Below, piece after piece: positions 6,173-63,908 of a stretch of DNA of 64,000 bases (positions within the stretch are counted from its first letter, which is position 1; each line of letters starts with the position of its first letter). Origin of the DNA: a virus; the IMG/VR virus record IMGVR_UViG_3300008111_000005, positions 32,001 to 96,000 of that record, one strand, 5' to 3'. The position numbers and the translations under genes were made by a program. The notes beneath the pieces were generated by a model. The model worked only from the letters and a program-made list of their open reading frames with translations, searched no databases and was not told the origin of the DNA.

Positions 6173-7270
6173 TTAAAATGCTATAATTTCACTGCCACCA
6201 CCACCTCCACCGCCACCACCACTATCTCCGTGTTGTATGTAGGTATCTGTGTGTGGAATTATTTCCGTATCGGAATGAGGAATGTCTGAGTGTGGTACAT
6301 ATGTGTCATTATGAACTGGTGTATCCGTATGCTGTGTGTCGGTGTGTTGCACCTGTGTATCATTATGCACCGTATCGTTGTGTGATGTATCTGCGTGTGT
6401 TGTGTCGTTGTGTGTGGTATCCGCGTGTTGAACAACAACGGTATCTAAATGCCCAGCTGCTCCATCAGCACCAGGCGTCCCTGCTGCACCGGCAGGTCCT
6501 GGTGGACCTGGTGGACCTGGGGTCATAGCCCTATCCAACGCTGCTTGTGCTGATTGTGCCGCTGCAGCTGCGGAAGCCGCTGCAGCTTGAGCCGTTGCAA
6601 GGGCTTGTTGTGCTAATGCACGTACAGGAGCAACTTGTGATTCTACGTACGCTACAATTCTACGCCAATACGGACCATCAAGATATTCATAAATTGGTGT
6701 ACCGACATCTTCTGCAAATATTCTGTTACCTTTTTTTGCCGTAGAATCTTCACGGGTACGTTGTGCTTGTGGAACGAATTTCGCATTTAAATGCGTTTCA
6801 ATCATATCATTCAATTCGTTATTTGTTCTGAATAATTGACCCGTTGCCTGTGTTAACGTAGGTGTTTGTGGTGGTGTAACCGTTACCGGAGTAGTATCCG
6901 TTACGGGTTGTGGTATTTCTTGTGCAGGTGTAAACGATTGTGGTGGATAGAAATTGGCACCAATACCCTTGTCAGGCAACAATCGTAGGTATACACCACC
7001 TGGAGCGATTTCATCATAATCACCAGTGAACAATCCACTTCTGTATGCATTGAATAGTTCCTCTGCATCAACATAGTCTGGATTAATGAACACCCAACCA
7101 CCCGAAGTTGTTGCGGTACTTAATACGTTGGCTGGTAAATTATTTAATTTACGAGTTTCCTCTGCACGTTCTGGTGTAATTACTATACGGCTGTATTTGC
7201 CAGAATTAAATTCGGCTACATCCCCGGCTCCAGCCGCAAAATATATATCTTGTTTTGTTGGTATAGCCAT
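6173..7270 (-). CDS. Putative virion/fibre protein: Ala-rich coil, short collagen segment, 13 H-x-D repeats, poly-Gly tail
   Basis: AQAAAASAAAAA, GPPGPPGPAGAAGTPGADGAAG, then HLD/HAD/HND/HTD/HSD/HGD motifs and a Gly9 run before SEIIAF. Confidence 0.75.
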   Translation of the reverse strand: MAIPTKQDIYFAAGAGDVAEFNSGKYSRIVITPERAEETRKLNNLPANVLSTATTSGGWVFINPDYVDAEELFNAYRSGLFTGDYDEIAPGGVYLRLLPDKGIGANFYPPQSFTPAQEIPQPVTDTTPVTVTPPQTPTLTQATGQLFRTNNELNDMIETHLNAKFVPQAQRTREDSTAKKGNRIFAEDVGTPIYEYLDGPYWRRIVAYVESQVAPVRALAQQALATAQAAAASAAAAAQSAQAALDRAMTPGPPGPPGPAGAAGTPGADGAAGHLDTVVVQHADTTHNDTTHADTSHNDTVHNDTQVQHTDTQHTDTPVHNDTYVPHSDIPHSDTEIIPHTDTYIQHGDSGGGGGGGGGSEIIAF

Positions 7271-31653: not shown

Positions 31654-32004
31654 TTATGCGGAAAAACTACTTCCACATCCACATTTAGCAGTAGCGTTTG
31701 GATTTTTAAAGGTAAACCCAGATCCCATCATGTCTATGACATAATGAACCAATGTACCATTTAAGTAAGAGCTGGAAAAGGGGTCTATGACAATCTTCAA
31801 TCCATTTTCCTGCTCTACAACAACATCATCCTCTTCTGGATTATCAATGATATTGAAGTTATACTTAAATCCCGAACAACCACCAGGTAATACCGAAATA
31901 CGGAAATATTCACTATTTTCCGCTTCGGAAAACTTTTTCATTTCACCCAATGCCGCGTTGGTGAAGGTAATACTAAAATCAGCCGCCTGTTGAACCGAAT
32001 CCAT
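31654..32004 (-). CDS. iscA: A-type Fe-S carrier (IscA/SufA/ErpA, HesB family)
   Basis: GGCSGFKY, F.NPNA..KCGCGSSF. Confidence 0.9.
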   Translation of the reverse strand: MDSVQQAADFSITFTNAALGEMKKFSEAENSEYFRISVLPGGCSGFKYNFNIIDNPEEDDVVVEQENGLKIVIDPFSSSYLNGTLVHYVIDMMGSGFTFKNPNATAKCGCGSSFSA

Positions 32005-56247: not shown

Positions 56248-57720
56248 TTATACCTTACGTTTAAAGAGTTGCGCCATATCGTCTTGACGATGGATTAATT
56301 TACCTTCCGGTTCCCATTCTTGGTCAAGACCAGTGACCTTCATAATATTATCAATCGAACCATACTGCTGTGTCCAATCACAGGTCAGATTAATTAACAA
56401 TAGGTCTGTCTTTTCATAAAGTTGCTTACGAACTTGTTCTGCTACTATCTTTGTTGTTTCCAACAATCGACCTGGCATTAGGAGAACCAGACTGTATGCT
56501 TTTTCATTCCACGTATGTAAGTCAAATATACTACCCATTGTAAAGATTCCCCAATGGATTGTTGTTGCTGCCGACATACAACGTTGCTTATCCATTTCCA
56601 CACCATGCGGAATTAAATCTTGTCTATCTCCCACCACACGACCTAACAAGACACCATTACCACACCCAAGGTCAAGCACATTTCCACTTGGAATATACTT
56701 CATATCTCCAACTGCATCAAGAATAACTTGATGGAAATGATCCATTGCACCCTTGTTACTAAATCCGTTCTCTTCCCAAACAGAAGTATCTTCCAACGAC
56801 TTAGCAAAGGATAGAGTCTTAGTAATAGGTTTAATTTTAGTTTTCTTTTGGTTATACGGATATGTAATACCCGACATACCATCTTCTGGATATGAATGAC
56901 TGAGCTTTTGTACCGTGTATTTCCACGGTGTCATATCTGTACGTGATGATATCTTATTGATTGGGGTACGAATTTCCGCGATGCCGTGCAACGCTGACCA
57001 TTCCACGGGCCACGAAAGAATTTCATAAATCCAATCAATTTCCTTATTATATCCAAGTGTACGACCAAGTTCTGCCATTTTCATACCAAGTTCTTCTGTT
57101 GCTTTACAATCAAATGAACATGGAAGATGTGAGACTAGTCGAATACCCTGCCACCGCCAAAGAATATTGGATTCTGGTGGAGTGTCTGCATTAATATGAA
57201 TAGTGTGATCGTTGTCGGTTAACGTCAGCTTATCAGCTGCCATTGTCCACGTAGAATCTACATATCCTTGGTTTACCCAATATTTGTTGAAATGTTCAAT
57301 ACAACATGTAGGGTATCCAAGTAATCTTCCCGCTTCACGGTCACGAATAGATGATGGGGAATTCCATATACTGAACCATTCTTCAGCCAATCGTTCTGAC
57401 TTTGTAAAAACAACTCGTATATTATAATCTCCACCAGCATATGGAATTGTAGTAGAGGAATATTGCCCAGTAATTCCTTCCTTTGCCAAGGCAACAATTT
57501 TTACACCATACTTACCATACTCTTCTTGCAACGACATCAATTCCGATGGACGGATGATATCTAGTGCAGATGGTCGAATGTCATGAACCACAGACATACG
57601 TTCTATATGTCTCCATGCACTGGAAATTGCCGAAATAATCGGTTCGTATTTATTTTTGTTTTCCATACTCGTCCACTGCACACGAGTCCAATCTGGTAAA
57701 ACGTGTTTAATTCTTTGCAT
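56248..57720 (-). CDS. DUF483-like Cys-motif domain fused to a class I SAM methyltransferase
   Basis: GRLLGYPTCCIEHF and HLPCSFDC; C-terminal VLDLGCGNG and GVEMD. Confidence 0.7.
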   Translation of the reverse strand: MQRIKHVLPDWTRVQWTSMENKNKYEPIISAISSAWRHIERMSVVHDIRPSALDIIRPSELMSLQEEYGKYGVKIVALAKEGITGQYSSTTIPYAGGDYNIRVVFTKSERLAEEWFSIWNSPSSIRDREAGRLLGYPTCCIEHFNKYWVNQGYVDSTWTMAADKLTLTDNDHTIHINADTPPESNILWRWQGIRLVSHLPCSFDCKATEELGMKMAELGRTLGYNKEIDWIYEILSWPVEWSALHGIAEIRTPINKISSRTDMTPWKYTVQKLSHSYPEDGMSGITYPYNQKKTKIKPITKTLSFAKSLEDTSVWEENGFSNKGAMDHFHQVILDAVGDMKYIPSGNVLDLGCGNGVLLGRVVGDRQDLIPHGVEMDKQRCMSAATTIHWGIFTMGSIFDLHTWNEKAYSLVLLMPGRLLETTKIVAEQVRKQLYEKTDLLLINLTCDWTQQYGSIDNIMKVTGLDQEWEPEGKLIHRQDDMAQLFKRKV

Positions 57721-57738
57721 AACCCCTTCGTGTTTAAA

Positions 57739-58095
57739 TTAAATCTTCAGCTTACTTTTTTCTTCTGCAATAATCTGTTGCAAAAATGCCTTCCACGAAT
57801 TTCCAGCAGTAGCCTGTGCTGTGTCGGTATCCGTACTTACTACTCCAAACTTGGCTTCATACGCTTCACGATACCGACCAGTTTCATCAACGTGGTCTGC
57901 ATGTCCGTTTGTCATATCAAACTCTTCACCAACAATTGTTTGTGATGTAGTTACTACTGGTACGGATTCGGTATCTCGAAATTCTTCTGGAATTTCCTTT
58001 AATATTCCCTTTTCCAAAAGTTCTTTTACTACTTCGAACTTTTGAGCGTAAGCTCCCGATGAGTCTACATGGTCAGCATGTAATCCTTGAATCAT
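57739..58095 (-). CDS. Small acidic protein with two HADHVD motifs (rSAM partner or substrate candidate)
   Basis: LHADHVDSSGAYAQKF and GHADHVDETGRYREAYEAKFG; GAGG RBS. Confidence 0.75.
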   Translation of the reverse strand: MIQGLHADHVDSSGAYAQKFEVVKELLEKGILKEIPEEFRDTESVPVVTTSQTIVGEEFDMTNGHADHVDETGRYREAYEAKFGVVSTDTDTAQATAGNSWKAFLQQIIAEEKSKLKI

Positions 58096-58115
58096 TTGTT
58101 TATCCTCTACTATTA

Positions 58116-59429
58116 TTAAGGTAAAAATCCATATTGTTCGTTAAACTCTTTTGAATATCGTCCTGTTTCGTCTGTATGATCGGCGTGTGGTATTTTACCA
58201 CCGTTTTTCATTACGATTTTTTGTTGTTTGATAAACTTATCAATATCAAACTGTCCTTCCAAATATCGTTTAATCTGCGCCAATCGTAACTCAACACCTT
58301 GACTGTATCCGTACATCAATGCATCTTCGTATTTTTGTCTATCTGGATGTAGTGACAATGGTGTTTCTCCTTTATGCACCATTAACTTTTCAAATATACC
58401 GAATGCCACTTTCCAATTCAAGCAGGTGTCTGTACGATTTCTCCAATCCATATCAATACCTGTACCAGGACAATGTGCCTTACAAGTTAAGAAGAAACGA
58501 CATCCTTGACATCCACCGTGTTCCTGCGGTGTGTGGTATAACGCCATTTGACGTTCAAATCCATCATATTGGGCTTTAATCCAATTAATACCTTCTTTAT
58601 TTCCACGACCACAATTTGCTTGGTTTCCTTGTGAATCAATACCTTGCACTGCGTGGGTAGTATATGGGTCACACGATAAGAAGGTACATGTTGCATTATT
58701 ATCTTGTGCCTTTAACATATCTTCTACGTCACGGAAAATATCGAATCGAAATGACCGTTTACCAGGACCATTTAATTCATTAATTTCAAACTCCCACATA
58801 TCCAGTAAGAATTCAATATTTTGTTCTGGTGTTAACGCAAGTGATTCCCCAATTGAACTGTGGTCAATTTCTAACGGATGGAGGCGAGCGCCATCAACAC
58901 CCCACGATTGAAGTTCTTTTACCCATGCCTTAAATCGGTCACGGTATTTTGGAAGTCCATTCTTTTTGTGAACAGTGATAATTAAACCAAGAGAAATTTT
59001 ATTAGCTAATAGTTTCTTAATTGCTTCAAATGATTTACGAGTAGCTTCTCTGGTTTTTTCCAATGACCCCGCCCAACGAGTATCATTCATTTCATCGGGT
59101 CCGTCGAGGGACACACCAACGTGAACGTTATACTTCTTGAACATTTCAATGTGGCGGTCGGTGATTAAAACACCATTTGTTTGGATACCATTTGCTTTAT
59201 AGCGTTCGTATCCCCACTTAAAAATAGTTTCTAAATCGTCAATATCAGTTAATAATGGTTCACCACCAAATAGAGTAAAGTTACCACCCTCTTTGGCCAA
59301 ACCTTCTAACATTTTTTCAACAGAATATGTTTTTTGACGGAAGTTACCCGCGTCACGCATAGGATGTTCGTAACAATACGGACAACTTAAATTACATACT
59401 ACTCCAACTGGTTCCAATTCAATCGTCAT
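58116..59429 (-). CDS. Radical SAM enzyme with SPASM domain (anSME/peptide-maturase type)
   Basis: CNLSCPYC, FGGEPLL, IQTNG, VSLDG; SPASM cysteines CTFLSC...C...CQGC.....C...C...C. Confidence 0.92.
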   Translation of the reverse strand: MTIELEPVGVVCNLSCPYCYEHPMRDAGNFRQKTYSVEKMLEGLAKEGGNFTLFGGEPLLTDIDDLETIFKWGYERYKANGIQTNGVLITDRHIEMFKKYNVHVGVSLDGPDEMNDTRWAGSLEKTREATRKSFEAIKKLLANKISLGLIITVHKKNGLPKYRDRFKAWVKELQSWGVDGARLHPLEIDHSSIGESLALTPEQNIEFLLDMWEFEINELNGPGKRSFRFDIFRDVEDMLKAQDNNATCTFLSCDPYTTHAVQGIDSQGNQANCGRGNKEGINWIKAQYDGFERQMALYHTPQEHGGCQGCRFFLTCKAHCPGTGIDMDWRNRTDTCLNWKVAFGIFEKLMVHKGETPLSLHPDRQKYEDALMYGYSQGVELRLAQIKRYLEGQFDIDKFIKQQKIVMKNGGKIPHADHTDETGRYSKEFNEQYGFLP

Positions 59430-59493: not shown

Positions 59494-60264
59494 TTATGGA
59501 CCAACAAATACTGGTTGGTCACTATGTGGTGTGGTATTATCTGTATGAGCAGCGGGAGTAGTGTTATCGGTGTGTGCAGCCGGTGTGGTATTATCCGTAT
59601 GAGCAGCGGGAGTAGTGTTATCGGTGTGCGCAGCCGGTGTGGTATTATCCGTATGTGCTGCTGGAGTCGTATTGTCCGTATGTGCTGCATTGATAGTAGT
59701 ATTTGTGTGTGCCGCGGCAATGTCTGTGTGGCTGGTAGCAATGTCTGTGTGACTCGCTGGTGTGGTATTGTCCGTATGTGCTGCGTTGGTAGTATTATCC
59801 GTGTGTGATGCGTTAATAGTGGTATCAGTATGTGCTGCTGGCGTGGTGTTGTCGGTGTGTGCAATGTTAGTGTGGGATGTAGCAATATCAGTATGAGATG
59901 TTGCTATATTCGTGTGGGATGTTGCGATGTCGGTATGCGCAGCATTCGTAGTGTTGTCTGTATGTGATGCGTTAATAGTGGTGTTAGCAAACGCAATATT
60001 CGTGTGTGAATTTCCAGTGTAATTGTCTGTGTGCGCAGCTGCGATATTAGTATGCGATGCAGCAACATTGGAATGTGGTGTAGTGCTGTTACTAAACGCA
60101 ATATTACTGTGTGCAATATCGGAATGTGAAGATATTGTCGCAATATTACTATGCGCAATATCTGTATGTGCTGACGACGCAGCGGCATTACCGTGTGCGA
60201 TATTTGTATGTGATCCAGCCACATTGCTATGACCGCCGGGAGAATAACTATCGGAATGTGCCAT
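59494..60264 (-). CDS. [H/F]-x-[D/N] repeat protein B (256 aa, 33 motifs)
   Basis: Almost entirely HTDNTTPAA, HTDIATS and HTNIA units; AGGA RBS. Confidence 0.88.
   Translation of the reverse strand: MAHSDSYSPGGHSNVAGSHTNIAHGNAAASSAHTDIAHSNIATISSHSDIAHSNIAFSNSTTPHSNVAASHTNIAAAHTDNYTGNSHTNIAFANTTINASHTDNTTNAAHTDIATSHTNIATSHTDIATSHTNIAHTDNTTPAAHTDTTINASHTDNTTNAAHTDNTTPASHTDIATSHTDIAAAHTNTTINAAHTDNTTPAAHTDNTTPAAHTDNTTPAAHTDNTTPAAHTDNTTPAAHTDNTTPHSDQPVFVGP
59521..59690 (-). repeat. 27-nt coding tandem repeat (HTDNTTPAA, about 6 copies)
   Basis: Units differ at synonymous positions. Confidence 0.85.
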
Positions 60265-60281
60265 AAAATATTATTCCTGAA

Positions 60282-61442
60282 TTATGAGCAGAGTTCGTTG
60301 GTACCACCACATACTTGATAATTAGAACACGCTAGGTAATAAAAACAACCCGAACATGTAACCAAATTGATACCATCACATACACTAGTACCATCGGTGC
60401 AACAATAATTATTTGTATGAGAGGCATTTGCCGTACTGTCTTGGTGGGATATTGAAGTATTAGTGAATGCAATATTATTATGCGCAATATCAGAATGTGA
60501 AGATATCGCCGCAATATTACTATGTGCTATATCCGTATGTGCGGAAGAAGCTGCAATGTTACTATGCGCAATATTAGTATGTGCCGCAGCGATATTTGAA
60601 AAGTTTGTAGTACTATCCGTATGACCTATTGATGTATTCGTATGTGCTGCGTTGGTAGTACTATCCGTGTGTGCGATATTTGTATGTGAATTTGGTATAT
60701 AACTGTTTGTATGTGCAGCAGGTATTGTACTATCGGTATGCGGAATTGTGGTATTCGTGTGTGGTATTGTGGTGTTGGTATGTGGAACTGTGGTATTGAC
60801 GAACGCAATATTTGTGTGAGCTGCTGGTGTGGTATTGTCCGTATGTGCTGCATTGATAGTAGTATTTGTATGTGCTGCGTTGATAGTAGTATCTGTATGT
60901 GCTGCTGGTATCGTAGTATTTGTGTGAGGAATAGTGGTATTTGTGTGTGGAGTTGTATTATCTGTATGTGATGATGGTGTGGTGTTATCTGTATGTGCAG
61001 CAATCGTGGTATTGTCTGTGTGTGCAGCAATTGTTGTATTATCGGTGTGTGCAGCAATCGTGGTATTATCGGTGTGTGCTGCGTTGATAGTAATATCAGT
61101 ATGTGCTGCTGGAGTGGTGTTATCGGTGTGTGCCGCAGTTACGTCGGTGTGACCACGAATTTCACTACCTGTACCAGAAATCCAATGCCAAAAAGTACTT
61201 TCAACCCACACAGAACCAGCCTTTGCACCTGCCGCAGCACCTAAGTTTGTATATGCAATTGTACGGTCAACCCCTGTAGCGGAGATATAATGGAAATCAT
61301 TTCCATCTACCCACACCGATCCAGGTTTAGCTCCCGCTGGTGATGTACCGGCGGTACCAGTATAATAATATTCATTTCCCGAGCCGTCTATGAAACGAAA
61401 CGTTTCACCATCAACCCAGATACTACCAGGTGCCTTTGGCAT
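60282..61442 (-). CDS. [H/F]-x-[D/N] repeat protein A (386 aa, 33 motifs) with a 3x GSxWV N-domain and an 8-Cys C-terminal tip
   Basis: PGSIWVDG/PGSVWVDG/AGSVWVES repeats, HTD array, YCCTDGTSVC...ELCS. Confidence 0.88.
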   Translation of the reverse strand: MPKAPGSIWVDGETFRFIDGSGNEYYYTGTAGTSPAGAKPGSVWVDGNDFHYISATGVDRTIAYTNLGAAAGAKAGSVWVESTFWHWISGTGSEIRGHTDVTAAHTDNTTPAAHTDITINAAHTDNTTIAAHTDNTTIAAHTDNTTIAAHTDNTTPSSHTDNTTPHTNTTIPHTNTTIPAAHTDTTINAAHTNTTINAAHTDNTTPAAHTNIAFVNTTVPHTNTTIPHTNTTIPHTDSTIPAAHTNSYIPNSHTNIAHTDSTTNAAHTNTSIGHTDSTTNFSNIAAAHTNIAHSNIAASSAHTDIAHSNIAAISSHSDIAHNNIAFTNTSISHQDSTANASHTNNYCCTDGTSVCDGINLVTCSGCFYYLACSNYQVCGGTNELCS

Positions 61443-61485: not shown

Positions 61486-62349
61486 TTATACACAAGTAAA
61501 TGTTCCTAAACAACCAACTGGCCGTGCTGCACATACTACTGCGTAGACACTACTATTGGGATTTGTATAAAAATTTGACCCAGATGATGGACTACCATCG
61601 GCACAAGTTACATATCCTGCGGGACACGATGCATCCACACCACGAGTTCCTTGTGGACCTGTTGGTCCTTGTACACCAGTAATTCCCTGTACTCCAGCCG
61701 ACCCCGTGGATGCCGCTGGTGCAGAAATACCTGTAACTCCTACAACACCCGTTGCTCCTTGTGGTCCCGATGGTCCTGTTGCACCCGCTGTGGGTAATCC
61801 TACAACACCACCTACACCCGTAGCACCCACCACGTTTGTTAATCCCGATGGTCCTGTTTGTCCAATAATTCCTGTTATACCAAGAATTCCTTGAATACCT
61901 GTTGCACCTGTTGGTCCTGTTGCACCCGTTGCGCCTGTTGACCCAGACACTAGTGAACCGATACCTGTAGCACCCGTTGGTCCTGTAATACCAATAGACC
62001 CCGATGCTCCTGTTGGCCCTGTTGGTCCCGTAGACCCAGTAACACCAGTTGGTCCAATAACTCCTGTTGGCCCTGTTGGTCCTAGTGGTCCTGTTGGTCC
62101 AGTTGGACCTGAGGTAGTTAATCCCGTTACCCCAGATACTCCTGTTGGTCCAGTAGACCCAGACCCAGCTATACCTACCAAACCAATTGGACCTGTTGGA
62201 CCTCTATCACCTATAACTCCTGTTGCACCAGGTCCATATGATGCGGTTAATACATTTACTCCCGCAGCGTATGTTGCAGTAAATGCTAAATTACTATATA
62301 ATGCAACGCTTGCAGTAGTTGGTGTACCAAGTGGAAAAAATGTGGTCAT
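61486..62349 (-). CDS. Collagen-like fibre protein with Cys-rich C-terminus
   Basis: G-x-T triplets (GPT/GAT/GIT) with interruptions; 5 Cys in the last about 46 aa. Confidence 0.88.
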
Positions 62350-63908
62350 AGGAATGCGTTACTGTGAGCGGCAGCGACATTTGAATGTGCTGCGGTGATA
62401 TTGGAGAAATTGGTGGTATTGTCTGTATGTGCGGCGGTAATATCCGTGTGTGCTGCGGTTATATCCGTGTGTGCTGCTGCAATGTTACTATGTGCAATAT
62501 TTGTGTGTGCTGCTGCAACATTTGAAAATGCGATGTTACTGTGTGCGATATCAGTATGTGATGCGTTGGTAGTATTATCAGAATGTGATCCTGGTGTAGT
62601 ACTATCAGTAAATGGAATATCGGTATGTGACGACGGTGTAGTACTATTTACGAATGCCGCATCGGTATGCACACCTATTATATCACTGTGATCATTAAAT
62701 GGACTACATGGTGTACCAGATGGACAAGAAGAATATCCGAAATAAAATAAACATCCAGGCCCCGCATCACCATCTAAACAATAAACACCAGTCGCTGCAT
62801 CATCACCATGCCCGATTGTACTGTCCGAATGTGGTTGATCAGTATGTGAGGCCGGCGTGGTACTAGATATTGCCGCAATATTAGTATGTTCTGTGTTAAT
62901 AGTAGTATTTGTGTGTGCTGCGTTAATAGTACTGGAACTTCCCGCAATATTTCCGTGTGAAATATTTGAATGTGGTGTGGTACTAGTAATTCCAGCAATA
63001 TTGGTATGTGCTGTATAATTGTTTGTGTGTGGTATTGTGATATTTGTAAAGTTTGTAGTACTGTCGGTGTGTGCTGCAGTAATATTAGAATGTGGTGTAG
63101 TACTATCACTATGTGGGACCGTAATATCGGAATGTGTTTGATTACATGATCCCGTGACGAAAAATGCAGCTCTTCCCGCAGCACCTTGTGGTCCTGTTGG
63201 ACCGACTGGCCCAGAAGGACCGGTAATACCTGTAACACCAGCGGAACCGAAGGTATTAGGACCACTAATACCCTGTGAACCTGCTGCACCCGTTGCTCCT
63301 GTTGGTCCTACTGGTCCTGTTGCTCCAGCACTACCAGATGGACCGATTGGCCCCGTAGAACCAACTGGCCCCACACCTGTTGGTCCTGTACTACCTTGTG
63401 GTCCTGTTGGACCTGTTGAACCTGTTGGTCCAGTTGCTCCAGCAACACCCGCTACACCACCAAATATACCAACACTACCTGTTGGACCTGTTGCACCAAT
63501 TGCCCCTGTTGGACCTGTTATACCTCGACTACCTGTTGGTCCCGTAACACCGATTACACCAGTGCTACCAGTTGGACCTGTTGGACCCGTGGGGCCTGTA
63601 GATCCTGTGATGCCACTTGGTCCAGTTGGACCTGTTGACCCAGATGTTTGTGGTCCAGTTGATCCTGTGGGTCCAGTTATACCGATAGAGCCGGACACGC
63701 CAGTTGGACCTGTTGGACCTGTTGGCCCCGTTGCTCCTGTTGGTCCTAGTGGTCCTGATGGTCCTGTAAATCCACCTATAGCGAACGATGCAGTAGCATA
63801 TCCAGACCCACTATTTACCGCAACTGACGCTGTAAACGTCAGTACACTTGCAGATAATGCGAATGAACTAGTAGTTGGTGTTCCGTATGGGAAAAACTTA
63901 AACGTCAT
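62346..63908 (-). CDS. Collagen-like fibre protein with C-terminal H-x-[D/N] hairpin and Cys loop
   Basis: About 200 aa of G-x-T, then 13 His motifs, a 4-Cys loop and 13 His motifs. Confidence 0.88.

Follow-up and report, generated by a model that had tools for sequence, protein, structure and literature searches.

The closest described counterpart of the protein treated here is the needle of T4 gp37 (PDB 2XGF), in which the chain, as Bartual et al. reportedly described in 2010, runs out to the tip and back to give a six-stranded antiparallel trimer. The gp37 needle contains seven irons, each held by H-x-H motifs from three chains (PMC6957217, PMC11705849), and the His residues that bind iron are essential to the fibre (PMC6957217). 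Two other systems are also relevant. First, in triceptides, a radical S-adenosylmethionine (rSAM)/SPASM enzyme joins the ring of residue 1 to the beta-carbon of residue 3 within an aromatic-x-x motif, and known enzymes accept HTK, HAA, HNR and a His-to-Phe swap (PMC11499958). Second, an rSAM module known from the Thermus phage phiMa is the subject of a single paper, which suggests possible DNA modification, does not mention the fibre and leaves the neighbouring protein gp29 undescribed (PMC11437467). Here we analysed a 64,000-nt stretch of viral DNA (positions 32,001 to 96,000 of IMG/VR record IMGVR_UViG_3300008111_000005, hereafter the window), which encodes a collagen-like fibre protein of 520 amino acids (aa). 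The last 262 residues of this protein probably fold back on themselves, antiparallel and in register, around a Cys-rich loop, using a repeated triplet different from that of gp37.

The triplet [HF]-x-[DN] was taken as the anchor, and spacing was counted in residues between anchors. Recomputed from the translation, the outgoing arm (anchors 259-367) has spacings of 7,7,7,7,7,7,12,5,14,9,14,5,7, and the return arm (anchors 407-515), read backwards, has 7,7,7,7,7,7,5,7,5,5,9,9,5,9,5,7. Both sum to 108, the return-arm count takes in F-V-N at 419, and there are 13 H-x-[DN] motifs per arm by anchor count. These values agree with those of the sequence-only reading, which had also placed the Cys-rich loop at the apex (residues 374-406) and had reconciled the two series by taking 12 as 5+7 and 14 as 5+9. 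This parse is genuine, because the 12- and 14-residue gaps of the outgoing arm contain degenerate anchors, G-I-T (306), G-S-S (323) and A-I-S (346), each of which sits exactly opposite a His anchor in the return arm. Measured from the last return anchor, 14/14 outgoing anchors coincide with return anchors. Shuffling the return units gave a mean of 5.8–5.9 coincidences and reached 14 in 0/20000, 0/5000 and 1/10000 runs, while the parallel (unreversed) control gave 8. The non-trivial part of the spacing code, beyond the basal units, is likewise mirrored. An origin of the mirror at the DNA level was rejected, as positions 62346-63134 (residues 259-520 and the stop codon) contain direct repeats and no inverted repeats; the mirror therefore exists at the protein level only. 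An inverted DNA repeat could not have produced a mirrored order of protein units in any case.

The mirror is kept while the code itself changes among homologues. The family is rare, with about five true relatives in a scan of 1.84 billion representative proteins, and the loci compared here (L001-L016) come from pattern scans of viral and metagenome contigs. Besides the window protein there are four further complete single-chain forms, each with a different, mirrored code. Two are mirror-identical, with 18 units and 19/19 coinciding anchors (L002) or 28 units and 29/29 (L013). In L012, with 20 outgoing anchors, the first 12 units match from the base and are followed by a 2-residue slip, so that 14/20 coincide. 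In L014, 12/16 outgoing anchors coincide, the remainder being three degenerate anchors inside 14-residue units and one local 5/9 swap. A fragment (P0005) has 9,7,9,7,9 on either side of its loop. Across the five single-chain proteins the arm lengths co-vary (119/114, 127/122, 148/141, 207/202 and 119/114 residues), the outgoing arm exceeding the return arm by the same 5 residues in four proteins and by 7 in the fifth (L012). The loop begins 7 residues past the last outgoing anchor and ends 1 residue before the first return anchor (5/5 homologues). The conserved C-terminus of the return arm, H-S-N-x-A-A-A-H-S-N-A-F/Y-L, is opposite the first outgoing units, and this end motif always partners them. 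At the other end of the shaft, C-[NT]-Q-T followed by H-S/T/A-D-I-T-V is kept at the junction with the collagen-like region, including the Cys, in 5/5 single-chain homologues.

Other searches returned little. No matches were found in a homologue search with residues 250-520, or by tblastn of the C-terminal 270 aa against cultured phages, where a low-complexity filter may hide relatives. The ESM Atlas gave no usable match, a PDB sequence search with E up to 10 gave nothing relevant, and Pfam recognised only Collagen in the 520-aa protein and no fibre-repeat family. Literature searches turned up no account of this fibre family.

Some orthologues, recognised by the head, collagen rod, ten-residue shaft start and ...H-S-N-A-F-L end, are divided among genes. 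In L005-L007, the collagen part and the outgoing arm share one gene with an unrelated 9-Cys tip, and a second gene provides a return arm of 258 aa; the 37 unit lengths of the two arms are mirror-identical except for one 9/11 swap and one 9 vs 7. In L003 and L004 the fibre occupies three genes, with a return arm that spans both outgoing pieces. The first piece, placed from the base, matches the return arm at 10/14 anchors, and the second, at offset 66, at 27/29 (L003) or 26/28 (L004). The outgoing pieces overlap by about 38 residues. Judging from these matches, the return strand appears to behave as a splint over a nick in the outgoing strand, which is difficult to explain without in-register pairing.

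The window itself contains a second fibre of the same repeat family, encoded by two genes (Table 1). It shares the triplet grammar, the unit set and the mirror rule with the 520-aa protein, but its arms are on separate polypeptides (386 and 256 aa), its head is not collagen-like, and both its Cys tip and its code are different. In the mirror, 31/33 of its anchors coincide. The zero-offset cognate scores of the two window fibres (14/14 and 31/33) compare with 8 and 18 in the best slipped registers, and non-cognate arm combinations reach no more than 8 at any offset. From these counts we infer that the irregular order of unit lengths would act as both a register lock and a partner code, fitting only the cognate arm at a single offset, and so would prevent mispairing of co-expressed paralogous fibres.

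Several details of the split forms were noted alongside. In the three-gene loci (L003:5251-7125, L004:5251-7047), the shaft overlap is made up of the tail of the first outgoing piece, which ends in G-G-N-P-P-F, and the head of the second. Where the second fibre has no Cys tip, its outgoing arm likewise finishes in G-G-N-P-P/G-G-P-S, and an ending of this type may be a dedicated strand-end cap. Compared with L005:5728-6921, the second fibre of L006:8643-9716 and L007:8643-9749 has an outgoing arm missing 40 residues (six units, 7,7,5,9,7,5) and a return arm that is unchanged (spans of 249 vs 289). The loss may mean a bulge that is tolerated, a defective fibre, or an artefact of assembly.

Residues at the predicted rungs follow rules of their own. 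Here the register was set by spacing alone, with His and Phe treated alike, giving about 260-314 rungs from fused and split pairs. Phe:Phe rungs occur twice against 22.9 expected (Fisher p=7e-12); the count rises to 10-11 at a one-unit shift and equals expectation at a two-unit shift. F-x-D accounts for 1/188 Phe motifs, and a His motif carries Asp at position 3 in 71% of cases if the partner anchor is His and in 24% if it is Phe. The 7-residue units are of two kinds, xxxSTTP and xxxIAAA, and opposite kinds face each other 93 times, a unit and its own kind 12 times. The rules hold in each protein taken separately. Homotypic pairing (His with His, Phe with Phe), considered as a test for six-His sites, was rejected, as His often faces Phe and only Phe:Phe is excluded.

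Taken together, the mirror, its compensatory change, the split forms and the rung rules make the in-register antiparallel fold-back at the Cys loop well supported, and we regard it as probable on this sequence evidence. The out-and-back zipper of the sequence-only reading is thus borne out by five different mirrored codes, co-varying arms, apex-split orthologues and the rung rules. In the arrangement that we propose, the last 262 residues would form one long fold-back. The outgoing chain would comprise 17 short units, 5, 7 or 9 residues long, each starting with His or Phe and having, after one residue of any kind, Asp or Asn. The chain would turn in the conserved 33-residue, four-Cys loop and return through 17 units of exactly reversed lengths, so that every outgoing unit would be paired antiparallel and in register with a single return unit, the C-terminus ending next to the collagen junction. 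The collagen part, for which the earlier assignment agrees with a Pfam Collagen match (E=1e-22), should trimerise, and the shaft would therefore be a six-stranded bundle, three strands out and three back, a topology shared with the needle of T4 gp37. What we infer on top of the fold-back is the trimer, its beta-needle geometry and the role of the triplets, and a six-stranded trimer with metal sites, drawn by analogy, is put forward tentatively.

The apex loop is the most conserved part of the protein, with 66-82% identity between the window protein and its homologues against 33-53% for the arms. It has four invariant Cys (377, 386, 395, 401) and a conserved core, Y-C-L-D-G-D-x-G-x-G-C. Such conservation suits a structural cap better than a variable host-specificity tip.

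A number of observations weigh against the fold-back or its details. AlphaFold 2 (AF2) returned a predicted local distance difference test (pLDDT) value of 30 and no secondary structure for a monomer of residues 251-520 (4-sequence alignment), and a pLDDT of 39 for the tip region (residues 341-441, 7 sequences). Neither gp37 nor any solved structure proved related in sequence in Pfam and PDB searches. The register is imperfect in places, with the 2-residue slip in L012 and local 5/9 swaps in L014 and the second fibre, and distant short-unit relatives show a significant mirror in only 4/8 proteins. Odd-length units, and the 3-4-residue units of phiMa, misfit a simple flat beta ladder, and spacing cannot fix the constant offset between the two ladders. 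The homologues are related, so the rung counts overstate the number of independent events. Lastly, metal binding by the triplets is proposed by analogy.

The comparison with gp37 holds for topology and logic rather than for family. As the sequence-only reading had suggested, the out-and-back course (predicted here from sequence) and the use of a different motif both stand, and the Pfam and PDB searches place the two proteins in no common family. In gp37 (T4 gene 37, L017:4543-7623), three H-x-H motifs precede the tip (883, 915 and 929) and four follow it (966, 980, 989 and 998). Residue numbers add up to 1895 both for 915/980 and for 929/966, which are thus mirror pairs, and the units are of 9 and 14 residues. 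The likeness to the 520-aa fibre would extend to His-headed triplets repeated along the axis of an out-and-back chain, 9- and 14-residue units and mirror-related motifs. The two differ in that gp37 has seven H-x-H motifs, while the 520-aa fibre has H/F-x-D/N at 17 rungs, with anchors on both arms nearly throughout. All 26 of its His motifs are H-x-D or H-x-N, accompanied by F-x-N/D variants, and none is H-x-H. The gp37 tip is a head domain, and that of the 520-aa fibre a 33-residue four-Cys loop. The 520-aa fibre further has a collagen-like rod, a linked rSAM module and relatives with arms in separate genes, unlike gp37, and there is no sequence similarity between the two.

The features of the locus are collected in Table 1. 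The source record has 104,871 bases, was judged about 55% complete and encodes a family B DNA polymerase, ribonucleotide reductase and helicases. The closest cultured match of the polymerase is Microcystis phage Mel-JY01 (43% identity), followed by T4-like cyanophages (33%). The 520-aa protein has both features of a collagen-like phage tail fibre, with G-x-y repeats (PF01391) and matches to tail fibre and tail PHROGs, namely phrog_5073 (E=1e-43), phrog_6320 and phrog_819. NCBIfam collagen-like adhesin models also match the G-x-y region, at scores under their cut-offs. The head (residues 1-44) is common to a collagen paralogue and the same N-terminus is found in all homologues. This paralogue (287 aa, 61486-62349, minus strand) has the same FFP head, no His repeats and a 57-residue Cys-rich C-terminal domain; this tip, 58-100% identical, is kept between the two His-repeat fibres in all loci.

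Table 1 Positions in the window of the fibre genes, their parts and the rSAM module.
Feature	Coordinates	Strand	Basis
520-aa collagen-like fibre with probable fold-back [HF]x[DN] shaft, whole gene	62346..63908	minus	ORF list and translation, PHROG tail fibre matches
N-terminal head, residues 1-44, begins MTFKFFPYG	63777..63908	minus	translations
Collagen-like G-x-y region, residues ~45-245, presumed trimerisation rod	63174..63776	minus	Pfam PF01391 Collagen, E=1e-22, 3 stretches
Junction G-S-C-N-Q-T, residues 253-258, Cys just before first anchor	63135..63152	minus	homologue comparison
Outgoing arm, residues 259-373, 14 explicit and 3 degenerate anchors, units of 5, 7, 9 residues	62790..63134	minus	anchor pattern
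Apex loop, residues 374-406	62691..62789	minus	two alignments
Return arm, residues 407-520, 17 anchors	62349..62690	minus	anchor pattern
Second fibre, same repeat family, two genes	59494..61442	minus	mirror match
Second-fibre outgoing arm with Cys tip, 386 aa	60282-61442	minus	anchor pattern
Second-fibre return arm, 256 aa	59494-60264	minus	anchor pattern
rSAM module (enzyme, small protein, 490-aa open reading frame (ORF)), after fibre genes	56248..59429	minus	gene order
rSAM/SPASM enzyme	58116-59429	minus	Pfam Radical_SAM, E=4e-16
Small protein	57739-58095	minus	module member
490-aa ORF, homologous to phiMa gp27	56248-57720	minus	weak methyltransferase matches only (NCBIfam)

For the triplets, we prefer axial cation sites made of three His and three Asp/Asn, by analogy with the H-x-H sites of gp37; in each arm, such a set could make an octahedral site. 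The window protein has at least one His at each of its 17/17 rungs, and this, with the coupling of Asp to His, fits a metal-site reading. The triplets may additionally be modified by the adjacent rSAM enzyme, as metal binding and cross-linking are not exclusive.

The alternative that survives best, though it is doubtful in our estimation, concerns the role of the triplets alone and keeps the mirrored fold-back, so that it is compatible with our main explanation. Here the triplets would be substrates of the rSAM/SPASM enzyme, with the ring of His or Phe joined to the beta-carbon of Asp or Asn in three-residue cyclophanes, giving a massively cross-linked fibre. [HF]-x-[DN] fits the triceptide definition aromatic(1)-x-x(3), and known enzymes accept both His and Phe (PMC11499958). 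The order of fibre genes, rSAM, small protein and 490-aa ORF is kept in L001-L006, with the small protein and the 490-aa ORF conserved in all of them, and the module comes after the fibre genes in every locus of sufficient length. In the very distant phiMa an rSAM and a homologue of the 490-aa ORF also follow an H-x-D fibre. That fibre, gp29, has 53 H-x-D motifs and no Cys, which makes H-x-D the shared feature, and both rSAM enzymes (window and phiMa) end in H-x-D motifs. The nearest NCBIfam models of the window rSAM are anSME, DynA and the cyclophane formers YhhB, AmcB, GrrM (GrrM/OscB), FxsB and XyeB. All matches are far below the curated cut-offs, however, and cover the N-terminal core only: YhhB, AmcB, GrrM, FxsB and XyeB give 39-68 bits vs cut-offs of 310-450, and the anaerobic sulfatase maturase model (anSME) scores higher and is best. 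Cross-linking alone would also leave unexplained the exclusion of Phe:Phe and the need of Asp for His in both arms, and the published proposal for the module is DNA modification (PMC11437467).

Triceptides, which are ribosomally synthesised peptides with post-translational modifications (RiPPs), resemble the window system in their repeated aromatic-x-x triplet, in the interchangeability of His and Phe at position 1 and in the rSAM/SPASM enzyme encoded alongside (PMC11499958). They differ in that their substrates are small leader-bearing peptides with few motifs, as opposed to virion fibres of 250-550 aa with 26-60 motifs here, and in that the window rSAM, unlike their enzymes, falls below every family cut-off. 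Carried further, the fibre would be a ribosomal protein matured like a giant RiPP, with about 30 cyclophanes per chain, zipped by its length code into a covalently stiffened and possibly metal-loaded needle. The code would then zip outgoing and return strands from one chain here and from two or three chains in relatives. We consider this extension unlikely. Within the module, the small protein has two copies of the H-A-D-H-x-D-E-T-G-R-Y piece found at the C-terminus of the rSAM.

Two other explanations concern the pairing itself. The mirrored arms might pair between different fibres, as two trimers zipped antiparallel or as a domain swap. The spacing demands only antiparallel in-register pairing, and the split forms show that outgoing and return arms can pair as separate chains. 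Against this, the fixed distances between loop and anchors (7 and 1 residues in the five single-chain forms) and the equal spans are what an intrachain turn requires, the C-terminal end motif is always opposite the first outgoing units, and pairing in trans would bury the tip loop in the middle of the fibre; we consider it highly improbable. Least credible of all is a low-complexity repeat array without pairing (a parallel solenoid or disordered chain) whose mirror is a by-product of repeat expansion: although the six basal 7-residue units are trivially symmetric, AF2 predicts no structure and the region has direct DNA repeats, tandem duplication yields direct and not reversed order, an inverted DNA repeat is absent, the non-trivial part is mirrored to a degree that shuffles almost never reach, all five different codes are mirrored, and the rung rules peak at zero shift.

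The intrachain fold-back also has a likely cultured representative among Thermus phages. Hypothetical proteins of phiMa and Cumys match the 386-aa protein in its head region. The phiMa protein, gp29, is 342 aa long and contains 53 H-x-D motifs, with units of 3-6 residues; it lacks both Cys and Phe, and its C-terminus, H-A-D-Q-P-V, is as in the window's return-arm protein. Its mirror comprises 18 pairs vs 10 in offset-optimised shuffles (reached in 0/3000), and on its sequence it appears to be a cultured single-chain example of the mirrored H-x-D fibre. It lies after baseplate J/I-like genes, a tail-fibre position, and precedes an rSAM 46% identical to that of the window and a homologue of the window 490-aa ORF (gp27, presumed to be the DUF483 gene of the published module). 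Thus gp29 and its Cumys homologue resemble the 520-aa protein as single-chain mirrored arrays in tail-fibre position with a homologous rSAM and 490-aa ORF downstream, and differ from it in their 3-6-residue units, in having no Phe, Asn, Cys or collagen, and in a head homologous to that of the 386-aa protein instead. Among eight short-unit single-chain proteins, the mirror is clear in gp29, P0017, P0019 and P0018 and non-significant in the other four; short units and one-residue slips weaken the test in these proteins.

Two further points concern genes related to the Thermus phage loci. In phiMa gp28 (L025:7038-8288), similarity to the window rSAM begins at 7038, which is upstream of the annotated start (7152), and the annotated protein has no CxxxCxxC motif, so its start codon looks mis-called; its C-terminus has several H-x-D motifs, like that of the window enzyme (…H-A-D-H-T-D…). 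The head of the 386-aa fibre (60282-61442, residues 1-97) is built of three copies, each of about 30 residues, of G-S-x-W-V-[DE]-G…H/F-Y-I. Thermus phage fibres share this head, as do metagenome proteins in which an M-A-W-T-x-P-x-T-W segment is added at the N-terminus. The head is covered by no Pfam family, a genome contig scan with it gave no matches, and nothing in Microcystis phage Mel-JY01 matches the 386-aa protein.

Should the fold-back prove real, it would be a second, unrelated route to a gp37-like needle, and unit lengths alone would tell which residues face each other, which arm fits and in which register. This would give residue-level contact predictions for a family without a structure or a Pfam shaft model and with about five relatives among 1.8 billion representatives. 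The fused, two-gene and three-gene forms mean that one strand of a fibre can carry a nick while the partner strand splints it, which is unusual for proteins and could serve in design. The finding also bears on claims of trace-metal binding by phage fibres. Under the giant-RiPP view, if true, the protein would be the first virion fibre cross-linked by an enzyme and, with partner and register set by unit lengths, a programmable protein zipper. The rSAM linkage extends from a Thermus phage of 52 kb to a T4-like phage that may measure ~190 kb (105-kb record, 55% complete) and has metagenome relatives, and its tightness suggests enzymatic maturation of the virion fibres.

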